This document shows positions 4,409 through 61,805 of a DNA stretch of 64,000 nt, piece after piece. A model generated the notes under the pieces. The model did not search any database. It saw only the letters and a list, made by a program, of their open reading frames with translations, and was not told where the DNA came from. The translations under genes and the position numbers were made by a program. Each line of letters begins with the position of its first letter. The first letter of the stretch is position 1. The DNA lies in assembly GCA_030649895.1 (NCBI GenBank), contig JAUSEX010000026.1, forward strand, positions 16,823 through 80,822. Reading direction: 5' to 3'. Source of the DNA: Candidatus Omnitrophota bacterium (GTDB taxonomy: Bacteria > Omnitrophota > Gorgyraeia > Gorgyraeales > Gorgyraeaceae).

Positions 4409-6424
4409 TCAAATTGACCAGACAATACTAAGATTAATTTCTTTGCCGCTTGGGATCTCGAGGCTCCATCTGGGCAATATGCAGGACGCCTGAAAGTTGA
4501 GCTCGTAAGCCCTTTCAGACTGGGATACTGTCTTGACCGGGAAATACCATATGTTTTCCGGCTTTTTTGAAAATGTAAAATAAATGTCTATCTCTTTTCC
4601 TGAATCCTTTATTGAAAACGAATCAGTCCCTGGAACCGCGCCCTTTTCATTGAGGCTAGCCAGAATTTTATCGCCTGCGGAATAACTATATCTATCTGAA
4701 TTTAAATAAGGCATTGTCAGATTGAATTCTATCCCAAAAACAGTCTCTATGGCGTCCTTGCTTAAATTTCTTAAACTATACAATATTTCTACCTGCTTCC
4801 TGCCTTTTAATTTTATTTCTTTTGTAACAGCTATGGCCTTACCATCCGCTTTACCTTCCCTCGCAAGCGCAACTTTATCTTTTCCCTTATTAGCCTTATA
4901 ACTTGCATTTATAAAATCTCCTGATTCTTTAGACTTACAATCTATAAAATCGTCTAACCCTGTTGACCTATCGATAAAATGGTCTATAAGGCATCCTCTT
5001 ACATGGCTATCATAACAAAATTCGGATTTAAGCCCCGGGTCGATAACCTTGGTATCTTCGTGAATAGTGCGCACAGCTTTTGCGTCACCGGATTCCCCCA
5101 TCTTTGCCAGTATTTTTTTGTGATACGTTTCTTCATGCCTCGCTATCGAATTGATAAGGTTCGTAGATACTTTTTTTGCGTCCAATTCCCTTATTATCCC
5201 GCCTTTGTCAGGGTCTATACACAAAGAAATCTCTTCATTCTCAATAATAAATGCCTTTTTGCCGTCCTCATAAAAATCTAACTCTTTTATCTCGACCCAG
5301 CCTTTTTTAGCTTTATGTAAAATCTTGTCTGCTATTTTTTCAGCATTTATAAGATGCTCGTAGATAGCCTTCCTTAAATGATAAAGATATAGCCCTCCGA
5401 ATACGCCATGCCAGTAAGCGCAGTTACATTGGCCTTTATATAATTCCCGTAGAGCCAGTTTTGGCTGAAGGCCGAAGGCTGAAGGCTTAATAGAATTTAC
5501 TTTTTTGCTCACATAATGCATTTTTCTGGCCATCTGATTGGCTTCAGGATAAATTCTCAGGAAATTCAGCCATGAACCATGCGACCACTCCATCATCTCC
5601 TGATATGACGCGTCAGGTATCCTTATTTTTTTCACAGGCGAATTTGAATTCAGATAATCCGACAATTTAATAGTAACAACCCAATCCTTATTCCTGGTTA
5701 ATTCCTCAAAGAATTTATTAAGCCAGTTCTGCTTATAGACCCAGTCATAGGTGAAAGGCCATTCCCCGAATTTTTCAGCGTCATCTCCGTATGTAAACAA
5801 AGGCTCATGCCTTCTTGAAGAAATTCCTTTAAAATAATCCATGATCTCGCCTGGCATTTTAAAAGGTATCATGTAGCGCAGCCTTTTGCTTGAAGGGAAG
5901 ATAGCTATCTCTTTATTTTTTTCGCCTGTTGTAAAATAACCGAACAGTTCATCTATATGCAAACCTGCTTCTATAAAATGCTCATCGTCAAGAATAGAAT
6001 ATTTCATGCCGGCCTTATTGAAATCCTTGGCAAGTTCAGGAGCCCAAACCCTTTCAGGCGTCCACATGCCTTGGGCTTTTTGGCCGAATCGTTTTTTTAC
6101 ATAATCAGCCATCATCTTTATCTGGCCGATCCTGTCAATTTCCGGTATGCTTGTAAAAATAGGTTCGTAGTAACCGCCTCCTATGATTTCCACCTGGCGC
6201 CTGTCAACCATGGCTTTAACTCTGTCCATATAATCAGGATGCTTGTCCTCAAAATAATCCAGAAGACATCCTGAAAAATGAAACGCCATTTTTATATCAG
6301 GGTATTTCTCGAATACGTCAAGGAAAGGCTTATAGCAATTTTGATAGGCCCTCTCTACAATATTATCAAAATTACCTACAGGCTGGTGAAAATGCAAACA
6401 CATCCCAAAGTAAACTTTATTCAT
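4409..6424 (-). CDS. GH57 4-α-glucanotransferase (Thermococcus litoralis-type)
   Basis: HFHQP, the GGGYYEP nucleophile region and the DDAEKFG and CNCAYWHG motifs are collinear with the characterised GH57 4-α-glucanotransferase. Confidence 0.8.
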   Translation of the reverse strand: MNKVYFGMCLHFHQPVGNFDNIVERAYQNCYKPFLDVFEKYPDIKMAFHFSGCLLDYFEDKHPDYMDRVKAMVDRRQVEIIGGGYYEPIFTSIPEIDRIGQIKMMADYVKKRFGQKAQGMWTPERVWAPELAKDFNKAGMKYSILDDEHFIEAGLHIDELFGYFTTGEKNKEIAIFPSSKRLRYMIPFKMPGEIMDYFKGISSRRHEPLFTYGDDAEKFGEWPFTYDWVYKQNWLNKFFEELTRNKDWVVTIKLSDYLNSNSPVKKIRIPDASYQEMMEWSHGSWLNFLRIYPEANQMARKMHYVSKKVNSIKPSAFGLQPKLALRELYKGQCNCAYWHGVFGGLYLYHLRKAIYEHLINAEKIADKILHKAKKGWVEIKELDFYEDGKKAFIIENEEISLCIDPDKGGIIRELDAKKVSTNLINSIARHEETYHKKILAKMGESGDAKAVRTIHEDTKVIDPGLKSEFCYDSHVRGCLIDHFIDRSTGLDDFIDCKSKESGDFINASYKANKGKDKVALAREGKADGKAIAVTKEIKLKGRKQVEILYSLRNLSKDAIETVFGIEFNLTMPYLNSDRYSYSAGDKILASLNEKGAVPGTDSFSIKDSGKEIDIYFTFSKKPENIWYFPVKTVSQSERAYELNFQASCILPRWSLEIPSGKEINLSIVWSI

Positions 6425-9446: not shown

Positions 9447-10775
9447 CTATCCCAGCGCTTCCATGCCCCTGCGGCAAATCTCCTTTGCGTAATCTGTCCA
9501 TGCGCCTGTGCCCCAGTATCGGAAGCAGCTGGTCTGGGATAATAATAGATAAAGAAGCGCCTTTCTGTAGGGAACAGTTTGAAGCCGCCCTCTAACTATT
9601 TCATTGTCAAATTTTTTATGAAATGCCGCGCTAAGCCGGGTTATAGGATCCATTATATCTTTATATCCGCTCACCCAATCTTTATCATTTGTCCAGGACG
9701 CCTTTTCCAGGCTAAAGCCAGGATATTTTTGTTTTGCTTTCTCAATAGCCATGTCAGCTGCGCCAGGAGAATATCCTTTTATGAATTCCCAGATCCTAGC
9801 CTGAGAAATCGGTTGCACCGGCATAAAAGAATTTTCTTTAAGGCCTGAGTTTTTTACAAATTCAAGATATTCTGTAGCGTTCATGCTGACTACGCCTTCC
9901 CTGCCTATTTCCTGAAAAACTATTTTATACATATTCGGAAACTCGTTCATCATGACTCCGCCGTTTTCCCCATCCCCTATCTGTGCCACAAAAGGCGGCA
10001 GATCTACCCCGCAATATTTTTCATTGCCAAGGCCTTTAGCTTCATAATACGGCTGCATCTGCCCGATCAGCTTATTGTCAGAACCCTGGGTTTTTATAAC
10101 GGCTATAATTTCAATCTTTTCCCCTAGAGAATTTTTAGCGACTAATTTGTGCGGAAAATGCGGCCTTCTTACAGGCGTGCCGTCGAGATTCTCTATTGTA
10201 TGCTCCTGGACCATGAGCCATTTATATCCACACTCTTTCAGGGCCTTTATATATTCAAAACACACATCGGGATGTATGGGAAGGTGCATCTCAGGCGCAG
10301 AAAAACCCTTCACCCTCTCAAGCGCTTTCTGACCGAATATTGAGGCAAAATGCTCTCGCCATTCTTGTATATGAAGCCTGATATCCGGGACAGGCGTAGA
10401 GCTGACAACGGCGTGCGACCACATTGTCCCGAGCCATTCAACATAGTTATAATATTTTTTGTCACAGGTCACAAGTTTCAAATTTTCCAGGACCTTTTCT
10501 TCGCCCATGTCTTTAAGGCCCCAGAGAAGGTTTCCCGAATAATCCAGCATAATCCTTGGATCTTTACCTTGACTGGAAAGTTCTCTTATAAAATCAGATA
10601 TCCTGGTATAGCAATTCAAAAATACAGGCGCATTGTGATTATCCCCTGTATTCTGATGCTCCATCATATACTGCAGATTGGAAATTAGCTTTGCCGTCCT
10701 GAGATCCTCGCCGCCTGCAGGAATAATAGGCTGATGCATATGAAGCGCTACGCCAAAACATGATTGTATCTTCAT
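9447..10775 (-). CDS. Glycoside hydrolase family 57 protein (third paralog, unknown specificity)
   Basis: HMHQP, a GFSAPEMHLP nucleophile-like region and GDGENGG. It overlaps the upstream branching enzyme by 4 nt. Confidence 0.7.
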   Translation of the reverse strand: MKIQSCFGVALHMHQPIIPAGGEDLRTAKLISNLQYMMEHQNTGDNHNAPVFLNCYTRISDFIRELSSQGKDPRIMLDYSGNLLWGLKDMGEEKVLENLKLVTCDKKYYNYVEWLGTMWSHAVVSSTPVPDIRLHIQEWREHFASIFGQKALERVKGFSAPEMHLPIHPDVCFEYIKALKECGYKWLMVQEHTIENLDGTPVRRPHFPHKLVAKNSLGEKIEIIAVIKTQGSDNKLIGQMQPYYEAKGLGNEKYCGVDLPPFVAQIGDGENGGVMMNEFPNMYKIVFQEIGREGVVSMNATEYLEFVKNSGLKENSFMPVQPISQARIWEFIKGYSPGAADMAIEKAKQKYPGFSLEKASWTNDKDWVSGYKDIMDPITRLSAAFHKKFDNEIVRGRLQTVPYRKALLYLLLSQTSCFRYWGTGAWTDYAKEICRRGMEALG

Positions 10776-12405: not shown

Positions 12406-12486
12406 AATAGGGACGGTTCTATAAGTAAAGCTAGATATGTCCCTTTAGGGGACATATCTCCGATTGGCTCTAGAACCGTCCCTATT
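12406..12486. repeat. TAGGGAC-arm palindromic element copy 2. Outer 16-bp inverted repeat AATAGGGACGGTTCTA..TAGAACCGTCCCTATT enclosing an inner 11-bp-stem hairpin (AGATATGTCCC-tttag-GGGACATATCT). It overlaps the DUF4912 stop
   Basis: Read from the sequence. It shares the terminal AATAGGGAC with copies 1 and 3. Confidence 0.7.
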
Positions 12487-14880: not shown

Positions 14881-15000
14881 GTCAGTTTCGCAATTGCTCC
14901 TCGACTCGCTTCGCTCATTGCCTCCTCCTGTCGCTCACTCGAAGAATACTGTTCGAGCGAAACCACGAAATGGCTGAATCGAGAATTTTCGCGTTATTCC
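14881..15000. repeat. Degenerate tandem or inverted copies of the GTTCGAGCG family-3 repeat, filling the CBM48–GT4 intergenic spacer
   Basis: TGTTCGAGCGAAACCACGAAATGGCTGAATCGAGAATTTT aligns with the copies at 18957 and 35817. The upstream half is an inverted relative. Confidence 0.5.
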
Positions 15001-18956: not shown

Positions 18957-18999
18957 AATATTATTCGAGCGAGGCACCAAAAGTGCCGAGTCGAGAACT
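18957..18999. repeat. Family-3 repeat copy A (AATATTATTCGAGCGAGGCACCAAAAGTGCCGAGTCGAGAACT), abutting the galT paralog stop
   Basis: About 90% identical to the copy at 35817-35859. As RNA it contains a GGCAC/GUGCC hairpin. Confidence 0.65.
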
Positions 19000-30314: not shown

Positions 30315-30392
30315 TGGTCGGGGAGGGCGGATTCGAACCGCCGGCCTCTTGCTCCCGAAGCAAGCGCGCTAAGCCAACTGCGCTACTCCCCG
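30315..30392 (-). tRNA. tRNA-Pro (anticodon CGG), CCA encoded
   Basis: A cloverleaf was folded by hand: C1-G72, A73, D-stem GCGC/GCGC, anticodon loop UUCGGGA, T-loop GGTTCGAATCC. Confidence 0.85.
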
Positions 30393-35816: not shown

Positions 35817-35859
35817 AATATTGTTCGAGCAAGGCACCGAAGATGCCGAGTCGAGAACT
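35817..35859. repeat. Family-3 repeat copy B (AATATTGTTCGAGCAAGGCACCGAAGATGCCGAGTCGAGAACT), overlapping the nusB stop
   Basis: About 90% identical to copy A at 18957-18999. Confidence 0.65.
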
Positions 35860-38012: not shown

Positions 38013-38066
38013 ACCCTGTCCACCCCGCAGGCGGCCCAATTGGGCCGCCTGCGGGGTGGACAGGGT
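38013..38066. repeat. 54-nt perfect GC-rich palindrome (ACCCTGTCCACCCCGCAGGCGGCCCAA|TTGGGCCGCCTGCGGGGTGGACAGGGT) between the riboswitch terminator and the ribBA RBS
   Basis: Read from the sequence. There are 27 of 27 complementary positions and no loop. Confidence 0.8.
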
Positions 38067-38104: not shown

Positions 38105-38240
38105 AAAATACAACGCGCTTACCTCTTCTCTCATCTAGCCTTTCACAATCGGTTCCGGAATCACGCCGGATCTGCCCTCTTTTACGAGAGCTCGCGGACT
38201 TTACCGCCGGTGGGGAATTTCACCCTCTCCCGAAGATACT
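38105..38240 (-). promoter_or_regulatory. FMN riboswitch (RFN element) aptamer in the ribBA leader
   Basis: The minus-strand RNA reads ...CUUCGGGAGAGGGUGAAAUUCCCCACCGGCGGUAAAGUCCGCGAGC...GAUUCCGGAACCGAUUGUGAAAGGCUAGAUGAGAGAAGAGG, matching the conserved RFN core (GGGUGAAAUUCCC, ACCGGCGGUA, CAGUGAAAG, GAUGGGAGAAG). Confidence 0.85.
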
Positions 38241-38244
38241 GTGT

Positions 38245-41142: not shown

Positions 41143-41219
41143 TGGTCGGGACGGCTGGATTCGAACCAGCGACCCCTTGAACCCCATTCAAGTGCGCTAG
41201 CCAACTGCGCCACGCCCCG
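41143..41219 (-). tRNA. tRNA-Pro (anticodon GGG), CCA encoded
   Basis: Hand-folded cloverleaf: C1-G72, A73, anticodon loop AUGGGGU, T-loop GGTTCGAATCC. Confidence 0.8.
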
Positions 41220-41240
41220 CCACTTTAATAGACTTTAATA

Positions 41241-41303
41241 GGGACAGCGCCCTATTTTAACTTGTCCTCTGAAATTTTCGCGTATAAAATAGGGCGCTGT
41301 CCC
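41241..41303. repeat. TAGGGAC-arm palindromic element copy 3 (18-bp arms GGGACAGCGCCCTATTTT / AAAATAGGGCGCTGTCCC, 27-nt spacer), between the gpsA stop and the tRNA-Pro 5' end
   Basis: Read from the sequence. Each arm is also internally palindromic (TAGGG-ACAGCG-CCCTA). Confidence 0.7.
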
Positions 41304-41336
41304 TTAATTATACCACATATAAAGCGCGGTTTCAAA

Positions 41337-42326
41337 TCATTCGGCTTTAGGCTCTCTGGTCATCAGTTCATTAACCGCTAAAAGAGGCGATTTGTTTTCA
41401 AATAAAACCGCGCGCACCTGCTGGGTGATAGGCAGCTCTATATTGTATCTTTTACCTAACTCCACTGCTGAGCAGGAAGTCCACGCGCCTTCTATCTCCA
41501 TCACGCTTTTATTCAGGAGTAACTCCGGCTTATTGCCTTTGCCTATCTCTTCGCCGAACCTGTGATTCCTGCCTTCAGGGCTGATGCACGTGGTAATCAT
41601 ATCCCCCAGCCCGCTCAAGCCCTGTAGAGTATCCCTGTTAGCGCCCATTGCCAGGCCCAAACGCGTCATCTCTGCCAGACCTCTTGTAAGTATCGCTGCC
41701 TTTGTATTTGCTCCGAACCCAAGGCCGTCTGAAATACCTGAGGCAATAGCTATCACATTCTTAAGGGCTCCGCCAAGCTCTACGCCTATTATATCTTTAT
41801 TGGTATAAACCCTGAAATGCTCTGCCCTGAATATATCGCTAACCTTTCTTGCGAAAATCTCATCCTCTGACGCCACTACTACAGCTGTCGGAATCCCCCT
41901 CGCCACTTCAGGCGCTATGCTTGGTCCTGACAATACAGCTATTTCCCTGCCTCCTAAGGCTTCCCTGACTACCTCGCTCATTCTTTTAAGAGTTTTTCCT
42001 TCTATACCCTTTGCTACGCTAACAAAACCAGCCTGTAGTTCTCCTAGGATCTTATTATTTTTTGTAATGACATCCCGCAGAAATCGCGACGGTATTGCCA
42101 GAACTATCAGATTGGAATCTCCGCACGCAACACGCATATCGTCTGTAAGCTGAATAGTCTTTGGGATTTTAAAACCGGGCAAAAATTTCTTATTCTCCCT
42201 GTTCTTTTTTATGGCCTCTACATCTTCTTTAAAAGCGCCCCAGAGCGATACGTCAAACCCTTTATTTTTCAATAAAATTGCTAACGCCGTGCCCCATCCG
42301 CCATCCCCTAAAACCGATATTTTCAC
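41337..42326 (-). CDS. gpsA: NAD(P)H-dependent glycerol-3-phosphate dehydrogenase
   Basis: N-terminal GxGxxG (VLGDGGWGTALA) and GpsA C-terminal domain. Confidence 0.9.
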   Translation of the reverse strand: MKISVLGDGGWGTALAILLKNKGFDVSLWGAFKEDVEAIKKNRENKKFLPGFKIPKTIQLTDDMRVACGDSNLIVLAIPSRFLRDVITKNNKILGELQAGFVSVAKGIEGKTLKRMSEVVREALGGREIAVLSGPSIAPEVARGIPTAVVVASEDEIFARKVSDIFRAEHFRVYTNKDIIGVELGGALKNVIAIASGISDGLGFGANTKAAILTRGLAEMTRLGLAMGANRDTLQGLSGLGDMITTCISPEGRNHRFGEEIGKGNKPELLLNKSVMEIEGAWTSCSAVELGKRYNIELPITQQVRAVLFENKSPLLAVNELMTREPKAE

Positions 42327-42460
42327 ATAACCTCCTGAATTTATTCAAGTTTAGCATATGACGACAATGTAGTCAATACATGATTCCAGGGAATTCGGTA
42401 TTATTTAAATAGCTGGATTATAAATATCGCAATATCCAGCCCTGGCAGGCCTAATAATAA

Positions 42461-42543
42461 ACCATAGACACTTCGTAAGCGGGTCAACTAGTTGACCCAC
42501 TTACGAAATATAATAATTAAAAAACAGGCCGTAAACCGTGGCG
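42461..42543. repeat. Family-4 conserved intergenic element (CCATAGACACTTCGTAAGCG ... TAATAATTAAAAAACAGGCCGTAAACCGTGGCGG). It carries a 29-nt palindromic insertion relative to the copy at 61630-61683
   Basis: The two loci align over about 55 nt at roughly 90% identity by manual alignment. Confidence 0.6.
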
Positions 42544-42630
42544 GACAAACGTCTTTTCGTAGGCCAGCTATGGCTGGCAAACACCTGCTAGCGCTATTTG
42601 ACATTGAAAGTATTGCATGGCTCCATAAGA

Positions 42631-43143
42631 TCAGATGATAATCTTGGAAAGGACTATCGTACCTTTGAAAACTGGCGGATTTTGCGAAACAAGGCTGAAA
42701 TCGAATTCCTTCAATATCGCCTGGGTAGGCGGTTTTGCGATTTGCGATATAAATTTAATGATATCAGCCATATCCCCTTCTATTTGAATCTCCATAGAAT
42801 GCTCCCTGTAGAAATCCTTTTCAATTTCCAGCCCAGGTTTTATATTGCTGGTTTTTACGCCAAAGACGTCCGCCTGTCGCTCTATATCATTTAAGATTCT
42901 GGATATATTTTTAGTAACCTTTGCGTGCTCATTGTATTCCTGAACAATAAAATCTCTCCTCTTCATCAATCTTATGCCTTTATTCATTATGGCTCTTCTG
43001 GCAGCTATCTCGCTGTTTAAAACCTGCCACTTCTTAAACCCTGCCTCTATTATAAAATTATATAATAACGCCGTAACGATAAGGGCCATGGCTGCGATAA
43101 AAATATAATTTTCTCTCCTTGAAATCATCATATCAAAACGCAA
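42631..43143 (-). CDS. Putative T2SS/T4P inner-membrane assembly protein (GspM/PilO-like, single TM)
   Basis: N-terminal transmembrane helix plus a periplasmic domain. Position is last in the gsp-like operon. There is no strong motif. Confidence 0.3.
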   Translation of the reverse strand: MRFDMMISRRENYIFIAAMALIVTALLYNFIIEAGFKKWQVLNSEIAARRAIMNKGIRLMKRRDFIVQEYNEHAKVTKNISRILNDIERQADVFGVKTSNIKPGLEIEKDFYREHSMEIQIEGDMADIIKFISQIAKPPTQAILKEFDFSLVSQNPPVFKGTIVLSKIII

Positions 43144-47687: not shown

Positions 47688-49130
47688 CTAGTCCTCTTTT
47701 GTCACCCTGACAACCTCACTGATAGTCGTTATGCCTTTTTTTACCTTTTCCAATCCATCCATCCTGAGAGTGCGCATACCCAATTCCAGCGCCTTATTCT
47801 TTATCTGGCCTGATGGCAAACGTTTTAAGATCATTTCCCGTATCTCGTCTTTCATTATTAAAAACTCATATATAGCTGTCCTGCCTTTATATCCTGTAAA
47901 TTTGCAGTATTCGCAGCCTTTCCCTTTGCAATCAAGGCAGATAACCCTGACAAGCCTTTGCGCAATAAAACATTCTACGGAACTCGCCACAAGATACGGT
48001 TCAATCCCTATATCTAAAAGCCTGGCTATGCCTCCTGCCGCATCATTTGTATGCAGCGTGCTAAAAACTAAATGCCCTGTCAAGGCGACTCTTATGGTTA
48101 TTTCTGCCGTCTCGTAATCCCTTACCTCTCCTAACATCATAACATCTGGGTCATGCCTTAGCATGGACCTCAGCCCTGTGGCAAAATTAAACCCTATCTT
48201 TGGATGAACTTGCATCTGGGTAATGCCTTTCAGCTGATATTCTATAGGGTCTTCTATGGTTATAATTTTTTTATCTGTATTATTTATCTTGGATAAACAG
48301 GCGTAGAGCGTGGTAGTCTTCCCGCTGCCGGTAGGCCCTGTAACAAAAAAAATCCCATGAGGCTTATTGATAAGCCTTTCGAGCGCTTGAAGGTCAGCAA
48401 TAGATAATCCCAGCCCCTCCAAACTATAAAGCATAGAACTGATAAGGATCCTGATATCTACGCTTTCTCCAAACTGCGTGGGCAATATAGACACCCTCAA
48501 GTCCATTTCCTGACCTGCTACTTTAATTTTTATCCTGCCGTCTTGAGGAAGGCGACGCTCTGAAATATCCAGGTTAGCCATAATCTTTATCCTGGAGACA
48601 ATGGCTGATTTAAAATATGCTATATTCCCGGGTATGGGCACATCATATAAAATACCATCCATCCTATATCTGATCCTGACATCTTCTTCGTATGGCTCTA
48701 TGTGTATATCCGTAGCGTTATCATTTACAGCCTGTACCAGCATCTGATTAACAAACTTCACTATAGACGCATCCTGGGCCAAATCATCTATATTTTCCAT
48801 CCCAGCTTCTTGAACCTCGAGCCTGGAGCCTTGAGCCATAATCTCTTCTATCGTTTCAGCGCCCAGGCCATAGCATTCTTTAATAGATTTTAATATATCG
48901 GCAAGACTGGCGTATACAGGCTCTATCTTAAATCCTGAAAATAAACCAATCTCGTCCAAAACATTTAAATTCAAAGGATCTTCTATGGCCAGGGTAAGAA
49001 CATTTTTTTCAAATTTTACCGGCAAAACTTTATAGTGGTATGCAAACTTTGCGGATATCTTCTTTAGGGTATCCGGATTTATTTTTATATCTTTCAGTCC
49101 AATAGAAGCTATGGATTCCAAGGCAGGCAT
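47688..49130 (-). CDS. gspE: Type II secretion / type IV pilus assembly ATPase GspE/PilB
   Basis: GspE N-terminal domain, Walker A GPTGSGKT, Asp box, His box and a tetracysteine motif. Confidence 0.9.
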   Translation of the reverse strand: MPALESIASIGLKDIKINPDTLKKISAKFAYHYKVLPVKFEKNVLTLAIEDPLNLNVLDEIGLFSGFKIEPVYASLADILKSIKECYGLGAETIEEIMAQGSRLEVQEAGMENIDDLAQDASIVKFVNQMLVQAVNDNATDIHIEPYEEDVRIRYRMDGILYDVPIPGNIAYFKSAIVSRIKIMANLDISERRLPQDGRIKIKVAGQEMDLRVSILPTQFGESVDIRILISSMLYSLEGLGLSIADLQALERLINKPHGIFFVTGPTGSGKTTTLYACLSKINNTDKKIITIEDPIEYQLKGITQMQVHPKIGFNFATGLRSMLRHDPDVMMLGEVRDYETAEITIRVALTGHLVFSTLHTNDAAGGIARLLDIGIEPYLVASSVECFIAQRLVRVICLDCKGKGCEYCKFTGYKGRTAIYEFLIMKDEIREMILKRLPSGQIKNKALELGMRTLRMDGLEKVKKGITTISEVVRVTKED

Positions 49131-51604: not shown

Positions 51605-52558
51605 TTAATTCGCAAACTTTTTTATATCTTCCGAAGTTTCTATATTATAAACTGTTAACCCTGGATTTATCCTGCGCAATAAACCCTTAAGCACCTTTCC
51701 GGGCCCTATCTCTAAAAATGTATTACAGCCGGCCTGGCTGATTTTTATTACAGACTCCTCCCACTTTACAGGGCTATATAATTGCTTAACAAGGTTCTCT
51801 TTTATTTCTTCCGCTGTTTTTTCGTAATCAGCCGTTACATTGCTTACGATAGGAATCCCGGGATCTAAAAATTTTGTTTTATCCAGCTCTTTCTTGAGTT
51901 CCCCTGCTGAGTCTTTCATAAAAGAAGAATGAAAAGGCCCGCTTACATTTAAAAGAATAGCTTTTTTTGCGCCTTTTTGCTCAGCCAGGGCCATAGCCTT
52001 TTTTACAGATTCAGTTTTACCTGATATGACTATCTGTCCAGGGCAATTCAAATTAGCTATCTCAGCTCCGGTTTCCATGCAAACTTCACTAAGATCCTCT
52101 GCGGAAATTCCAAGTATTGATGCCATAGTGCCGGGATTATTATTAGCTGCCTGCTCCATCAATTTACCTCTCTGACTCACCAGCCTGACAGCTTCCGGAA
52201 ATTCCAATGCGCCGCTAGCAACTAAAGCGCTATATTCGCCAAGACTCAATCCCGCGCAACACGCTGGCTCAAGGCTGAAGGCTGGAGGCTCAACAAAAGC
52301 CCCTTCAGCCTTCAGCCTAGAGCCTAGAGCCCGCAATGCCGCAATGCTTGTCACAAAAATCGCGACCTGGCTATTTGCTGTCTGCGTCAACTCTTCAGCC
52401 GGGCCTTCAAAGCATAATTTTTTCAAATTCAAGCCAGGCAAAATCTCCTCTGCCTGGTCAAATATGTTTCTTGCCTCAGGGCTATTATCGTACAGATCCT
52501 TTCCCATGCCTACATATTGCGACCCCTGGCCTGGAAAAATATAACAAACCTTATCCAC
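51605..52558 (-). CDS. fabD: Malonyl-CoA:ACP transacylase, carrying an in-frame repeat-derived insertion before the active-site GLSLGEY
   Basis: FabD fold motifs (GQGSQ, G.S.GEYSAL). There is about 13 aa of extra sequence (LGSRLKAEGAFVEPPAFSLEPA) encoded by short tandem DNA repeats. Confidence 0.9.
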   Translation of the reverse strand: MDKVCYIFPGQGSQYVGMGKDLYDNSPEARNIFDQAEEILPGLNLKKLCFEGPAEELTQTANSQVAIFVTSIAALRALGSRLKAEGAFVEPPAFSLEPACCAGLSLGEYSALVASGALEFPEAVRLVSQRGKLMEQAANNNPGTMASILGISAEDLSEVCMETGAEIANLNCPGQIVISGKTESVKKAMALAEQKGAKKAILLNVSGPFHSSFMKDSAGELKKELDKTKFLDPGIPIVSNVTADYEKTAEEIKENLVKQLYSPVKWEESVIKISQAGCNTFLEIGPGKVLKGLLRRINPGLTVYNIETSEDIKKFAN

Positions 52559-54796: not shown

Positions 54797-54812
54797 TTTA
54801 AACTCCTTGTCG

Positions 54813-54886
54813 TATTGTTCGAGCGGCCCACCATTGTTTCTGCGGCGGGAAGACGAGAGCTTCTCGGCTTCGCTCGAAACATATTA
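54813..54886. repeat. Family-3 repeat, long inverted-repeat form (TATTGTTCGAGCG...GAGCTTCTCGGCTTCGCTCGAAACATATTA), between yceD and rpmF
   Basis: The terminal arms are the reverse complement of each other. It shares the 5' block with copies A and B and the internal block with 33788-33863. Confidence 0.55.
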
Positions 54887-60676: not shown

Positions 60677-61626
60677 AGTCCTTTCAGATTATCTGTCCAT
60701 TCCGGTATGCGCTTACGCATTATAGTGCTCATAACCTGCCTGAATCCATTTTTTAGCCCTGCTTTTTCAGCCAGCCTTATTGCCTCCATGTATTCCCTGG
60801 CGGTAATCCTGCGGTCTATTTCTGGATATTTATCCGCCAGATAACCGGAATAATATTGCGCCATCACATTAACATATGTATCGGGCGATAACTCATTAGC
60901 GATAAACTCAAATACTTCCTGACTGCCAGCTAAATCCTCAGGCAACACAAGATGTCTTATTAAAAGACCTTTCTTCGCAATGCCTCTATCCATCTTTAAA
61001 TCGCCAACCTGCCTGTACATTTCCTTTACCGCTATTTTATTTATCTCAAAATAATCCGGCGCATTTGAATATTTTTTAGCAGAACTACTATCGGAATATT
61101 TCATATCAGGCATATAAATATCTATTATTCCGTCCAAAATCTCCAAAGCTTCTATCGATTCATACCCACCCGAGTTATAAACTAGAGGAATATTTAAACC
61201 CAATTCTTTTGCAATAAATACAGCTTTTAAAATCTGCGGCATATAATGAGCAGGCGTTACAAAATTTATGTTGTGGCAGCCTTCAGCCTGCAGTTTCAGC
61301 ATCATGCCAGCCAATTCCTCTACGCTTACTTCTTTGCCGCTACCAAGCTGGCTTATAGGATGATTCTGGCAGAATACGCACCTGAGGCTGCAATGTGTAA
61401 AAAATATAGTGCCTGAGCCGGATCTGCCAGAAATAGGCGGCTCTTCTCCGAAATGGGCGTGAAAACTCGAAACCATCGGCAATAATCCTGCCTTGCAAAA
61501 CCCTATCTGGCCCTTAAGCCTGTTCACCCCGCATTTCCTGGGGCAAATACAGCATTTTTCCATCAATTTATAAGCCTTCTTGATTCTTCCTTGCATAACC
61601 GCCTTAAAATTTTGCAATACTTTCAT
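60673..61626 (-). CDS. Radical SAM protein, PflX-like (COG1313-type, N-terminal Cys-rich C.CPR.C)
   Basis: CSLRCVFCQN radical-SAM cluster motif and an N-terminal CCICPRKCGVNR. It is 4-nt coupled to recG. Confidence 0.7.
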   Translation of the reverse strand: MKVLQNFKAVMQGRIKKAYKLMEKCCICPRKCGVNRLKGQIGFCKAGLLPMVSSFHAHFGEEPPISGRSGSGTIFFTHCSLRCVFCQNHPISQLGSGKEVSVEELAGMMLKLQAEGCHNINFVTPAHYMPQILKAVFIAKELGLNIPLVYNSGGYESIEALEILDGIIDIYMPDMKYSDSSSAKKYSNAPDYFEINKIAVKEMYRQVGDLKMDRGIAKKGLLIRHLVLPEDLAGSQEVFEFIANELSPDTYVNVMAQYYSGYLADKYPEIDRRITAREYMEAIRLAEKAGLKNGFRQVMSTIMRKRIPEWTDNLKGL

Positions 61627-61629
61627 AGG

Positions 61630-61683
61630 CCATAGACGCTTCGTAAGCGTAATAATTAAAAAACAGGCTGTAAACCGTAGCGG
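61630..61683. repeat. Family-4 conserved intergenic element, short form, abutting the radical-SAM start codon
   Basis: Aligns to 42461-42543 (minus the 29-nt insertion) at about 90% identity. Confidence 0.6.
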
Positions 61684-61776
61684 CCGGCGAAGCTTTTCTT
61701 AAAACCTGCCAGAGCCAGATACTGTAATATCTATTACCTGACTATTCAAATAATCCAATTATTCCTATCATTTTCC

Positions 61777-61805
61777 TTGCATATTATATCATACTATGCT
61801 ATTAT
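61777..61805 (+). promoter_or_regulatory. Candidate σ70 promoter for rpmB (TTGCAT-17 nt-TATTAT)
   Basis: Spacing and sequence were read from the plus strand, about 38 nt upstream of the AAGGAG RBS. Confidence 0.4.

Follow-up and report, generated by a model that had tools for sequence, protein, structure and literature searches.

Two spacers of the window, i.e. the 64,000-nt stretch of a Candidatus Omnitrophota contig analysed here, share a conserved sequence motif, one copy lying ahead of gpsA and the other ahead of a radical-SAM/recG gene pair. This raises the question of whether the motif is a regulatory or leader RNA common to these genes or a fourth class of mobile repeat, the two options left by the original prediction. 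As set out below, the motifs are very likely what is best preserved of two old copies of an Omnitrophota MITE (a non-autonomous DNA transposon) that have suffered internal deletions.

Results and discussion

A conserved 54-nt motif in two spacers

That the window holds a two-copy conserved element is borne out. The 20-mer CCATAGACRCTTCGTAAGCG has two exact plus-strand occurrences in the 64-kb window (42462–42481 and 61630–61649), as has the 34-mer TAATAATTAAAAAACAGGCYGTAAACCGTRGCGG (42511–42544 and 61650–61683), and dinucleotide shuffles yielded no match for either. Together, the 20-mer and the 34-mer are identical at 51 of 54 positions (94%) between copy 1 and copy 2, whereas the adjoining arm reaches only 47 of 81 (~58%). 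The first interval had been placed at 42461–42543, which captures the motif but is shifted by one base; the correct coordinates are 42462–42544. Searches of the 64-kb window with the exact pattern and with the family HMM (see below) revealed no copy of the motif beyond these two.

A search for the 55-mer had been proposed along with the original prediction. The exact motif gave no match elsewhere in genome and metagenome collections, and the variant found in the window is therefore regarded as private to the source lineage. A degenerate core pattern, in contrast, retrieved 101 metagenome loci, and in about 70 of these a single long element is present in highly conserved form. A family consensus (325 nt) and an HMM were built from the metagenome loci, and a full-unit HMM was used as well. 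In Rfam, neither the motif nor the full element has a match at the gathering and E-value thresholds. It is important to note that the original prediction covered the 54-nt identity island alone; the surrounding units measure 145–223 nt, and the units of the parent family ~430 nt.

The parent family bears the marks of transposition

The family is multicopy, with terminal inverted repeats (TIRs), target-site duplications (TSDs) and filled as well as empty sites, and both motifs of the window lie inside degenerate units of it. Of the two options, it is thus the mobile repeat class that is upheld: each motif forms the core of a degenerate copy of an element that is dispersed and has TIRs and TSDs. 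A complete unit is non-coding and ~430 bp long. Its termini read TGTAATACTTTCAATGATAGGTAAC… and …GTATTGCA or …AGTACA (TG…CA; TGT…(A/G)CA), and TGTAATACTTTCAATGATAGGTAAC and its complement occur at both family ends as TIRs, which are degenerate in both copies of the window. The family TSDs span 13–16 bp. They are exact over 15–16 nt in L150 (TAATATACCATATTT) and over 13 nt in L088 (AATAATATAAAAA), and identical at 15/16 positions in L092 and 12/15 in L005. Among the seven copies for which both termini were located, six have a flank identity of at least 10/14, and in five the flank identity lies above all 3000 mismatched controls. As to filled and empty sites, L184 has nothing inserted at the pilO-gpsA site; at the rpmB/radical-SAM site, L003, L005 and the window carry an insertion, whereas L006 and L007 do not.

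The copies are always intergenic and lie beside unrelated housekeeping genes, with no preferred neighbour and no preferred orientation relative to the genes (21 sense, 15 antisense, 4 divergent, 3 convergent). By sequence reading, the neighbours comprise pilin-like, ArgS, Mfd-like, DnaA-like, glycosyltransferase and HD-domain proteins, of which only ArgS is confirmed by its source name. A recurrent neighbour that had seemed recG-like reads as Mfd-like, and the remaining neighbours are diverse or represent the same locus in related strains. Contigs of 60–80 kb hold two to three copies of the family. Flanking proteins with an organism name in their source (5 of the 10 looked up) all belong to Candidatus Omnitrophica/Omnitrophota, and members of the family were likewise recognised in named Omnitrophota MAGs, two relatives carrying one at the same rpmB/radical-SAM spacer. 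Near-identical copies come from groundwater or lake samples, e.g. 3300029286 and Hainich H43. Locus L106 carries orthologues of window genes at 82–92% identity.

Matches to the TIR pattern are essentially restricted to sites beside family copies; the others have five mismatches and were taken as chance. No transposase gene was found adjoining the family copies or TIR matches, and neither an autonomous partner nor a transposase with matching ends was detected in ~1.7 Mb of retrieved loci, in viral contigs or in plasmids. The viral contigs and plasmids contained no family copies. One candidate ORF for a small protein or type I toxin (start at the conserved ATGCCGAAAC) was rejected, as it is unconserved past ~10 codons and has no Shine-Dalgarno (SD) sequence.

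The family resembles bacterial MITEs and palindromic repeats such as Correia/NEMIS of Neisseria, ERIC/IRU of enterobacteria, RUP of S. pneumoniae and Nezha of cyanobacteria, which are likewise non-coding, shorter than 500 bp, and provided with TIRs and TSDs. Like these, it is multicopy, strictly intergenic in either orientation and prone to form long hairpins when single-stranded, and it shows length variants through internal indels, comparable to the ~70-bp inserts of ERIC. It differs from them, however, in that its TSDs are 13–16 bp rather than 2–9 bp long, and in that its interior is better conserved than its termini, with compensatory changes and a conserved asymmetric side hairpin.

Elements of the IS481 family and the IS1202 group have TGT…ACA ends and discrete TSD classes of ~6, 15–17 and 24–29 bp (PMC10045372). 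The ends TGTAATAC…GTATTGCA or …AGTACA of the present family and its TSDs of 13–16 bp are similar to those of the IS481/IS1202 group (and of IS481EU). Unlike IS481/IS1202 elements, the family has no transposase gene, and an autonomous copy sharing its ends was not detected; its ~430-bp unit forms a hairpin from one end to the other, unlike two joined IS ends. It is a MITE-type family in Omnitrophota, previously undescribed as far as our literature searching went, in which we found no description of this family nor of any Omnitrophota repeat family or ncRNA.

Copy 1 in the pilO-gpsA spacer

Copy 1 is located between the pilO stop codon (42631–42633) and the gpsA promoter, with gpsA starting at 42326 and the neighbouring genes on the minus strand. 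HMM matches and the empty site in L184 delimit a whole inserted unit of 223 nt (42395–42617, minus strand), which, judging from its sequence, is an internally deleted, rearranged derivative of the ~430-bp family. When the full-unit HMM is applied, 42536–42618 corresponds to the family right end (E 4.8e-9), 42394–42453 to the other family end (E 3e-4), and 42546–42518 to the central left arm, i.e. the core (E 1.6e-3). The motif in copy 1 (42462–42544, minus strand) consists of the family's 27-nt central left arm (CCGCCACGGTTTACGGCCTGTTTTTTA on the minus strand), a window-specific segment of 27 nt (ATTATTA CGCTTACGAAGTG TCTATGG) and a 29-nt insert. Half of the 54-mer is thus left arm that is conserved across the whole family.

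The extra 29-nt palindromic insertion that had been described for the first copy is real (42482–42510, GGTCAACTAGTTGACC at its centre). It pairs with the flanking CTTCGTAAGCG to give a near-perfect palindrome with overlapping arms of 21 nt and 95% complementarity. The insert is confined to copy 1, and its sequence was found nowhere else in the window or among 190 loci. Copy 1 folds strongly (z = −5.2) because this palindrome dominates. The palindrome is also the sole terminator-like candidate, with a weak score. In L191, a strain-level relative from another sample (GpsA 98%) that carries the same copy 1, the insert shows one G-to-A change (L191 1–40 compared with window 42472–42507). This change would turn a T·G into a T-A pair and make the palindrome perfect, if the other arm, which lies beyond the contig end, equals that of the window. 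The L191 contig ends at the centre of the insert palindrome, as if the assembly had broken at the hairpin.

Locus L184, with a GpsA that is 89% identical and the same pil-gpsA synteny, has a spacer of 67 nt without the element, versus 304 nt in the window. Counterparts of its single empty-site 14-mer, ATCCTCTGGAATCA, flank the window insert at either end: on the pilO-proximal side ATCTTATGGAGCCA (42618–42631, minus strand; 10/14 identical), which abuts the terminus TGCAATACTTTCAATG, and on the gpsA-proximal side ATTCCCTGGAATCA (42381–42394, minus strand; 12/14 identical). Each of these sequences abuts a degenerate terminus, and beyond them the window matches L184 with two base differences before the gpsA start. 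Since the empty-site 14-mer flanks both ends, copy 1 appears to be a 223-nt insertion with a decayed TSD of 14 bp. The two TSD halves agree with each other at only 8 of 14 positions, which is not significant alone, and the case for this putative duplication is built on the L184 empty site.

The terminal structures of copy 1 are degenerate to different degrees. At its terminus, 15 of the first 16 nt equal the consensus. The TIR TGCAATACTTTCAATGTCAAATAGC (42593–42617, minus strand) is a fuzzy match, from 42593 and with five mismatches, to the family TIR AATACTTTCAATGATAGGTAAC, and its degenerate partner is found at 42395–42413. Further inward, an inverted repeat read from the sequence (CCAGCCCTGGCAGGCC, 42436–42451) pairs with GGCCAGCTATGGCTGG at 42562–42577; it is the counterpart of the CCAGCCCTGGCAGG/CCTGCCAGGGCTGG stem of the family, which covaries (helix 1).

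The position of copy 1 is relevant to the idea that the 54-mer has been exapted as a cis-regulatory signal (promoter, operator or 5′ leader) for gpsA and the radical-SAM/recG operon. On the minus strand, such a signal would consist of TTTAC(G/A)-17 nt-TATATT/TACGCT, followed by the small inverted repeat CGCTT-ACG-AAGCG as a possible dimeric-regulator site. Both copies are indeed situated upstream of the next gene and on the same strand, the core is far more alike than the adjoining arm, and a promoter scan flagged TTTACG-17-TATATT in copy 1. However, a promoter-like site of gpsA (TTGACT-17-TAAACT, TG-extended; 42348–42376, minus strand) lies outside and downstream of copy 1, and it is conserved in L184, L185–L187, L189 and L192 irrespective of the upstream gene. 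Copy 1 is therefore not in the gpsA leader. Moreover, L184 maintains the same gpsA arrangement without the element, and the other gpsA relatives have a different upstream gene, no element and the same gpsA promoter. The earlier statement that the copies lie 5′ of genes is correct as to position; copy 1, however, also adjoins pilO on its 3′ side, and the gpsA promoter is downstream of it.

In L185 and L186, an insert of ~500 nt is present between the gpsA promoter and the SD sequence (about 9460–9985). In L185 an 84-aa GIY-YIG ORF is called in it (9732–9986), and inverted repeats border it (AACCCCGTTAGATAA/TTATCTAACGGGGT). The insert probably represents a further small mobile element that has used this hotspot.

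Copy 2 and the start of the radical-SAM gene

Copy 2 has the divergent rpmB promoter on one side and the radical-SAM/recG genes on the other, the radical-SAM gene being on the minus strand. Its whole unit, delimited by HMM matches and filled orthologous sites, comprises 145 nt (61613–61757, minus strand) and consists of the left terminal repeat, the left outer arm, the central left arm, the window-specific segment and the right terminus. With the full-unit HMM, 61767–61685 is recognised as the family left end (E 4.8e-9) and 61691–61657 as the central left arm (E 1.2e-6); the core HMM matches copy 2 on the minus strand with E 1.3e-7. The motif occupies 61630–61683 (minus strand). An inner inverted-repeat arm, CCTGCCAGAGCCAG (61705–61718), has lost its partner, and the fold of copy 2 is ordinary (z = +0.4/+0.2).

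Orthologous sites in relatives differ in their content. L005 (83% identical protein) has a nested palindrome of ~330 nt in the rpmB/radical-SAM spacer, where the element is full-length; its left arm contains CGCTACGGTTTGCGGCTCGTTTTTTA, the counterpart of CCGCTACGGTTTACAGCCTGTTTTTTA in the window. L003 (87%) carries a shorter element with an inverted centre. In L006 and L007 (77% and 73%) the spacer is without insert, and a single ATGCAAG… represents the radical-SAM start, its ATG overlapping the −35 region of rpmB. L004 has a different gene upstream of the radical-SAM gene. A direct repeat, ATGCAAGGAA, flanks the copy 2 spacer (61773–61782 and 61587–61596) and is not flush with the termini; it may represent a longer TSD class or a second event. 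The element centre is inverted when L003 (5739–5971) is compared with L005 (5641–5959), and the core of copy 1 is also flipped relative to its outer arms, which suggests in-situ inversion via recombination between the element's own arms.

The radical-SAM ORF, which corresponds to the NCBI protein of 317 aa, has its first ATG at 61624–61626, inside the terminal repeat of the element. The motif had been said to end 4 nt from this ATG, which is nearly right: the distance from 61626 is 3 nt. Taking this ATG as the radical-SAM start, devoid of an SD sequence, does not stand up to comparison with homologues. Most of the 120 best homologues are ~10 residues shorter (mostly 305–309 aa versus 317 aa) and cover 95–97% of the query. 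The probable true start is therefore Met11 (61594–61596, minus strand), which is preceded by an SD-like AAGGCGG. Residues 1–10, which derive from the terminal repeat, are probably a product of misannotation.

Once the element has inserted, transcription of the radical-SAM gene requires a promoter within or beyond it, a point in favour of the cis-regulatory idea. Yet the promoter scan left the copy 2 site unflagged, and the candidate −10 hexamer TACGCT agrees with TATAAT at only 3 of 6 positions. A shared regulatory or leader RNA is furthermore at odds with the lack of a fold signal in copy 2 and of an Rfam match, with the absence of the exact motif from public genome and metagenome collections, with the occupancy of half of the 54-mer by the universally conserved left arm of the family, and with the occurrence of the parent family beside unrelated genes in both orientations. 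A leader would be expected at a constant place and in one orientation 5′ of the same kind of gene, which is not the pattern observed. Together with the empty L184 site and the location of copy 1 upstream of the gpsA promoter, these findings make a cis-regulatory role of the shared motif highly unlikely.

Structure and covariation of the full element

The full element is predicted to fold into a branched rod of ~430 nt with one side branch (−228 kcal/mol, z = −14.8). RNAalifold analysis of 30 full-length copies predicted 71 pairs, 27 of which show compensatory double changes. Paired cells amount to 96.9%, compared with 88.3% in shuffles and 37–46% when the partners are slid, and double-change cells number 183 versus 48 in shuffles, with none of 500 shuffles as high. 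Strong covariation is also seen in an asymmetric side hairpin, the loop of which is conserved (helix 12). Sequence conservation is ~95–99% in the central 130 nt, as opposed to 50–70% in the termini and outer arms, and the apex modules are exchangeable.

These features could mean that the family is in essence a multicopy structured ncRNA or ssDNA module, in which the hairpin is selected, mobility is secondary, and the copies in the window are broken RNA genes. The compensatory changes beyond shuffled and slid controls, the covarying side hairpin with its conserved loop, the sharply conserved centre and the low fold z score all speak for it. The TIRs and TSDs, on the other hand, show transposition. 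In addition, no conserved promoter or terminator framing the family unit was found, and the orientation to genes is random. The excess of G-U over A-C, 78:19 overall with pairs predicted on the same strand, is largely gone (27:19) once three dominant pairs are left out. Arms of a DNA palindrome can be homogenised by repair with no need for RNA. The copies in the window cannot form the family structure, because the partner arm has been lost. Overall, we regard a primary RNA or ssDNA identity of the family as quite improbable. Its structure may be selected in RNA, selected in ssDNA, or kept by palindrome repair.

Two candidate transcription signals were rejected. An intrinsic terminator is not predicted in the full element, where the T-run pairs with the A-run of the other arm, and an internal sigma-70 promoter at the invariant apex TTGACA has no −10 at 16–18 nt that is acceptable by eye and was not flagged by the scan. 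At both ends of the element in L165 (10960–11480), outward sigma-70-like hexamer pairs were noticed, five versus 0.6 expected from shuffles, e.g. CTGGCA-18-TATCAT ending near the terminus; these are consensus matches only, and they could drive neighbouring genes.

Long imperfect hairpins are also typical of REP/REPIN-type elements, whose mobility comes from a RAYT (Y1 HUH) transposase with single-stranded hairpins as its substrate. The family shares with REP/REPINs the dispersed imperfect hairpins with conserved bulges or mismatches, vertical persistence and a location between genes. Its conserved arm contains CTAC (GTAG on the other strand), and a Y1_Tnp gene occurs in one relative, L189. However, REPINs are much shorter, have a GTAG/CGTC head, generate no TSD and flank a RAYT gene, none of which is true of the family. 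Its unit measures ~430 bp rather than 20–40 or about 100 bp, its TSDs of 13–16 bp are clear, and the Y1_Tnp gene of L189 is flanked by different repeats with no family copy nearby. An origin as REP/REPIN is accordingly extremely improbable. The L189 gene (14011–14991) encodes a 326-aa Y1_Tnp protein (PF01797), lies downstream of a PALP-domain gene read as thrC, and has its own repeats (…CAACAATGTTGATTTGTCAAGTTGTTAG…).

A probable MITE origin of the window copies

For the MITE, the TGT…ACA ends and the TSD length suggest that an IS481/IS1202-type DDE transposase mobilises it in trans. Such an enzyme would introduce staggered cuts ~15 bp apart into AT-rich DNA at gene boundaries. Having lost the apex and one arm, and with degenerate termini, the copies in the window are probably immobile relics. 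The contrast between 94% and ~58% identity may be explained in part by the family-wide conservation of the central left arm. The shared core could, in addition, be a lineage-specific deletion variant spread by recombination or gene conversion. The centre of copy 1 is flipped relative to its outer arms, and this flip also accounts for an adjoining arm that agrees at no more than 47/81 positions beside a core that agrees at 51/54. The effects of the insertions on their surroundings would be incidental, copy 2 giving the radical-SAM ORF a spurious in-frame ATG and copy 1 separating the gpsA promoter from the pil operon by a strong hairpin.

Two puzzles remain within the MITE explanation. The 51/54 island could reflect selection on the core in the source genome, and a plain MITE would not usually have covarying stems and an interior far better conserved than its termini, which hints at an extra function. 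For both, there is a modest chance that an added function at the RNA or DNA level is involved. On such a view, the element would not be a plain MITE but a transposon carrying a selected structured RNA or ssDNA module, and the 54-mer a still-functional remnant of it. The module would comprise the 99%-conserved central hairpin with its fixed mismatches and the covarying side hairpin with its conserved loop, and it might act as an element-encoded regulatory or guide RNA, or as a structure-specific site at which its recombinase recognises the element. We consider this combination unlikely.

With the MITE as the preferred reading, the motif of the window would be transposon debris and not the signal of a regulon, which removes a false lead, and the start codon of the radical-SAM gene is corrected. 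An abundant repeat family with clear ends, TSDs of ~15 bp and an HMM is now defined in an uncultivated phylum. The HMM can be used to mask the repeat in Omnitrophota MAGs, where palindromes break assemblies (cf. the L191 contig end). The family may also serve as a lineage marker and as an entry point to the search for an IS481/IS1202-like transposase, and its conserved, covarying interior merits attention at the RNA level.

Other repeats and RNA features

The genome is rich in intergenic palindromes. An intergenic hairpin repeat family of 43 nt is represented in the window at 14945–14987, 18957–18999, 35817–35859 and 54811–54853; TTCGAGCGRGGCAC recurs in the left arm of the large element, so that the 43-nt repeats may be a module related to it, or else a REP-like family of their own. 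Small palindromic families were noted at 1951–2028, 12406–12486, 41240–41304 and 38013–38066, as well as at 5463–5490, 48807–48838 and 52265–52331, the types being GGGACAGCG, a perfect 27+27 palindrome, and the GGCTGAAGG type. At the gathering threshold, Rfam identified an FMN riboswitch (38119–38241, minus strand) and two tRNA genes (30318–30392 and 41146–41219, both minus strand) in the window. A c-di-GMP-I riboswitch (4618–4753, minus strand) is present in L092, on a contig that also carries a family copy.
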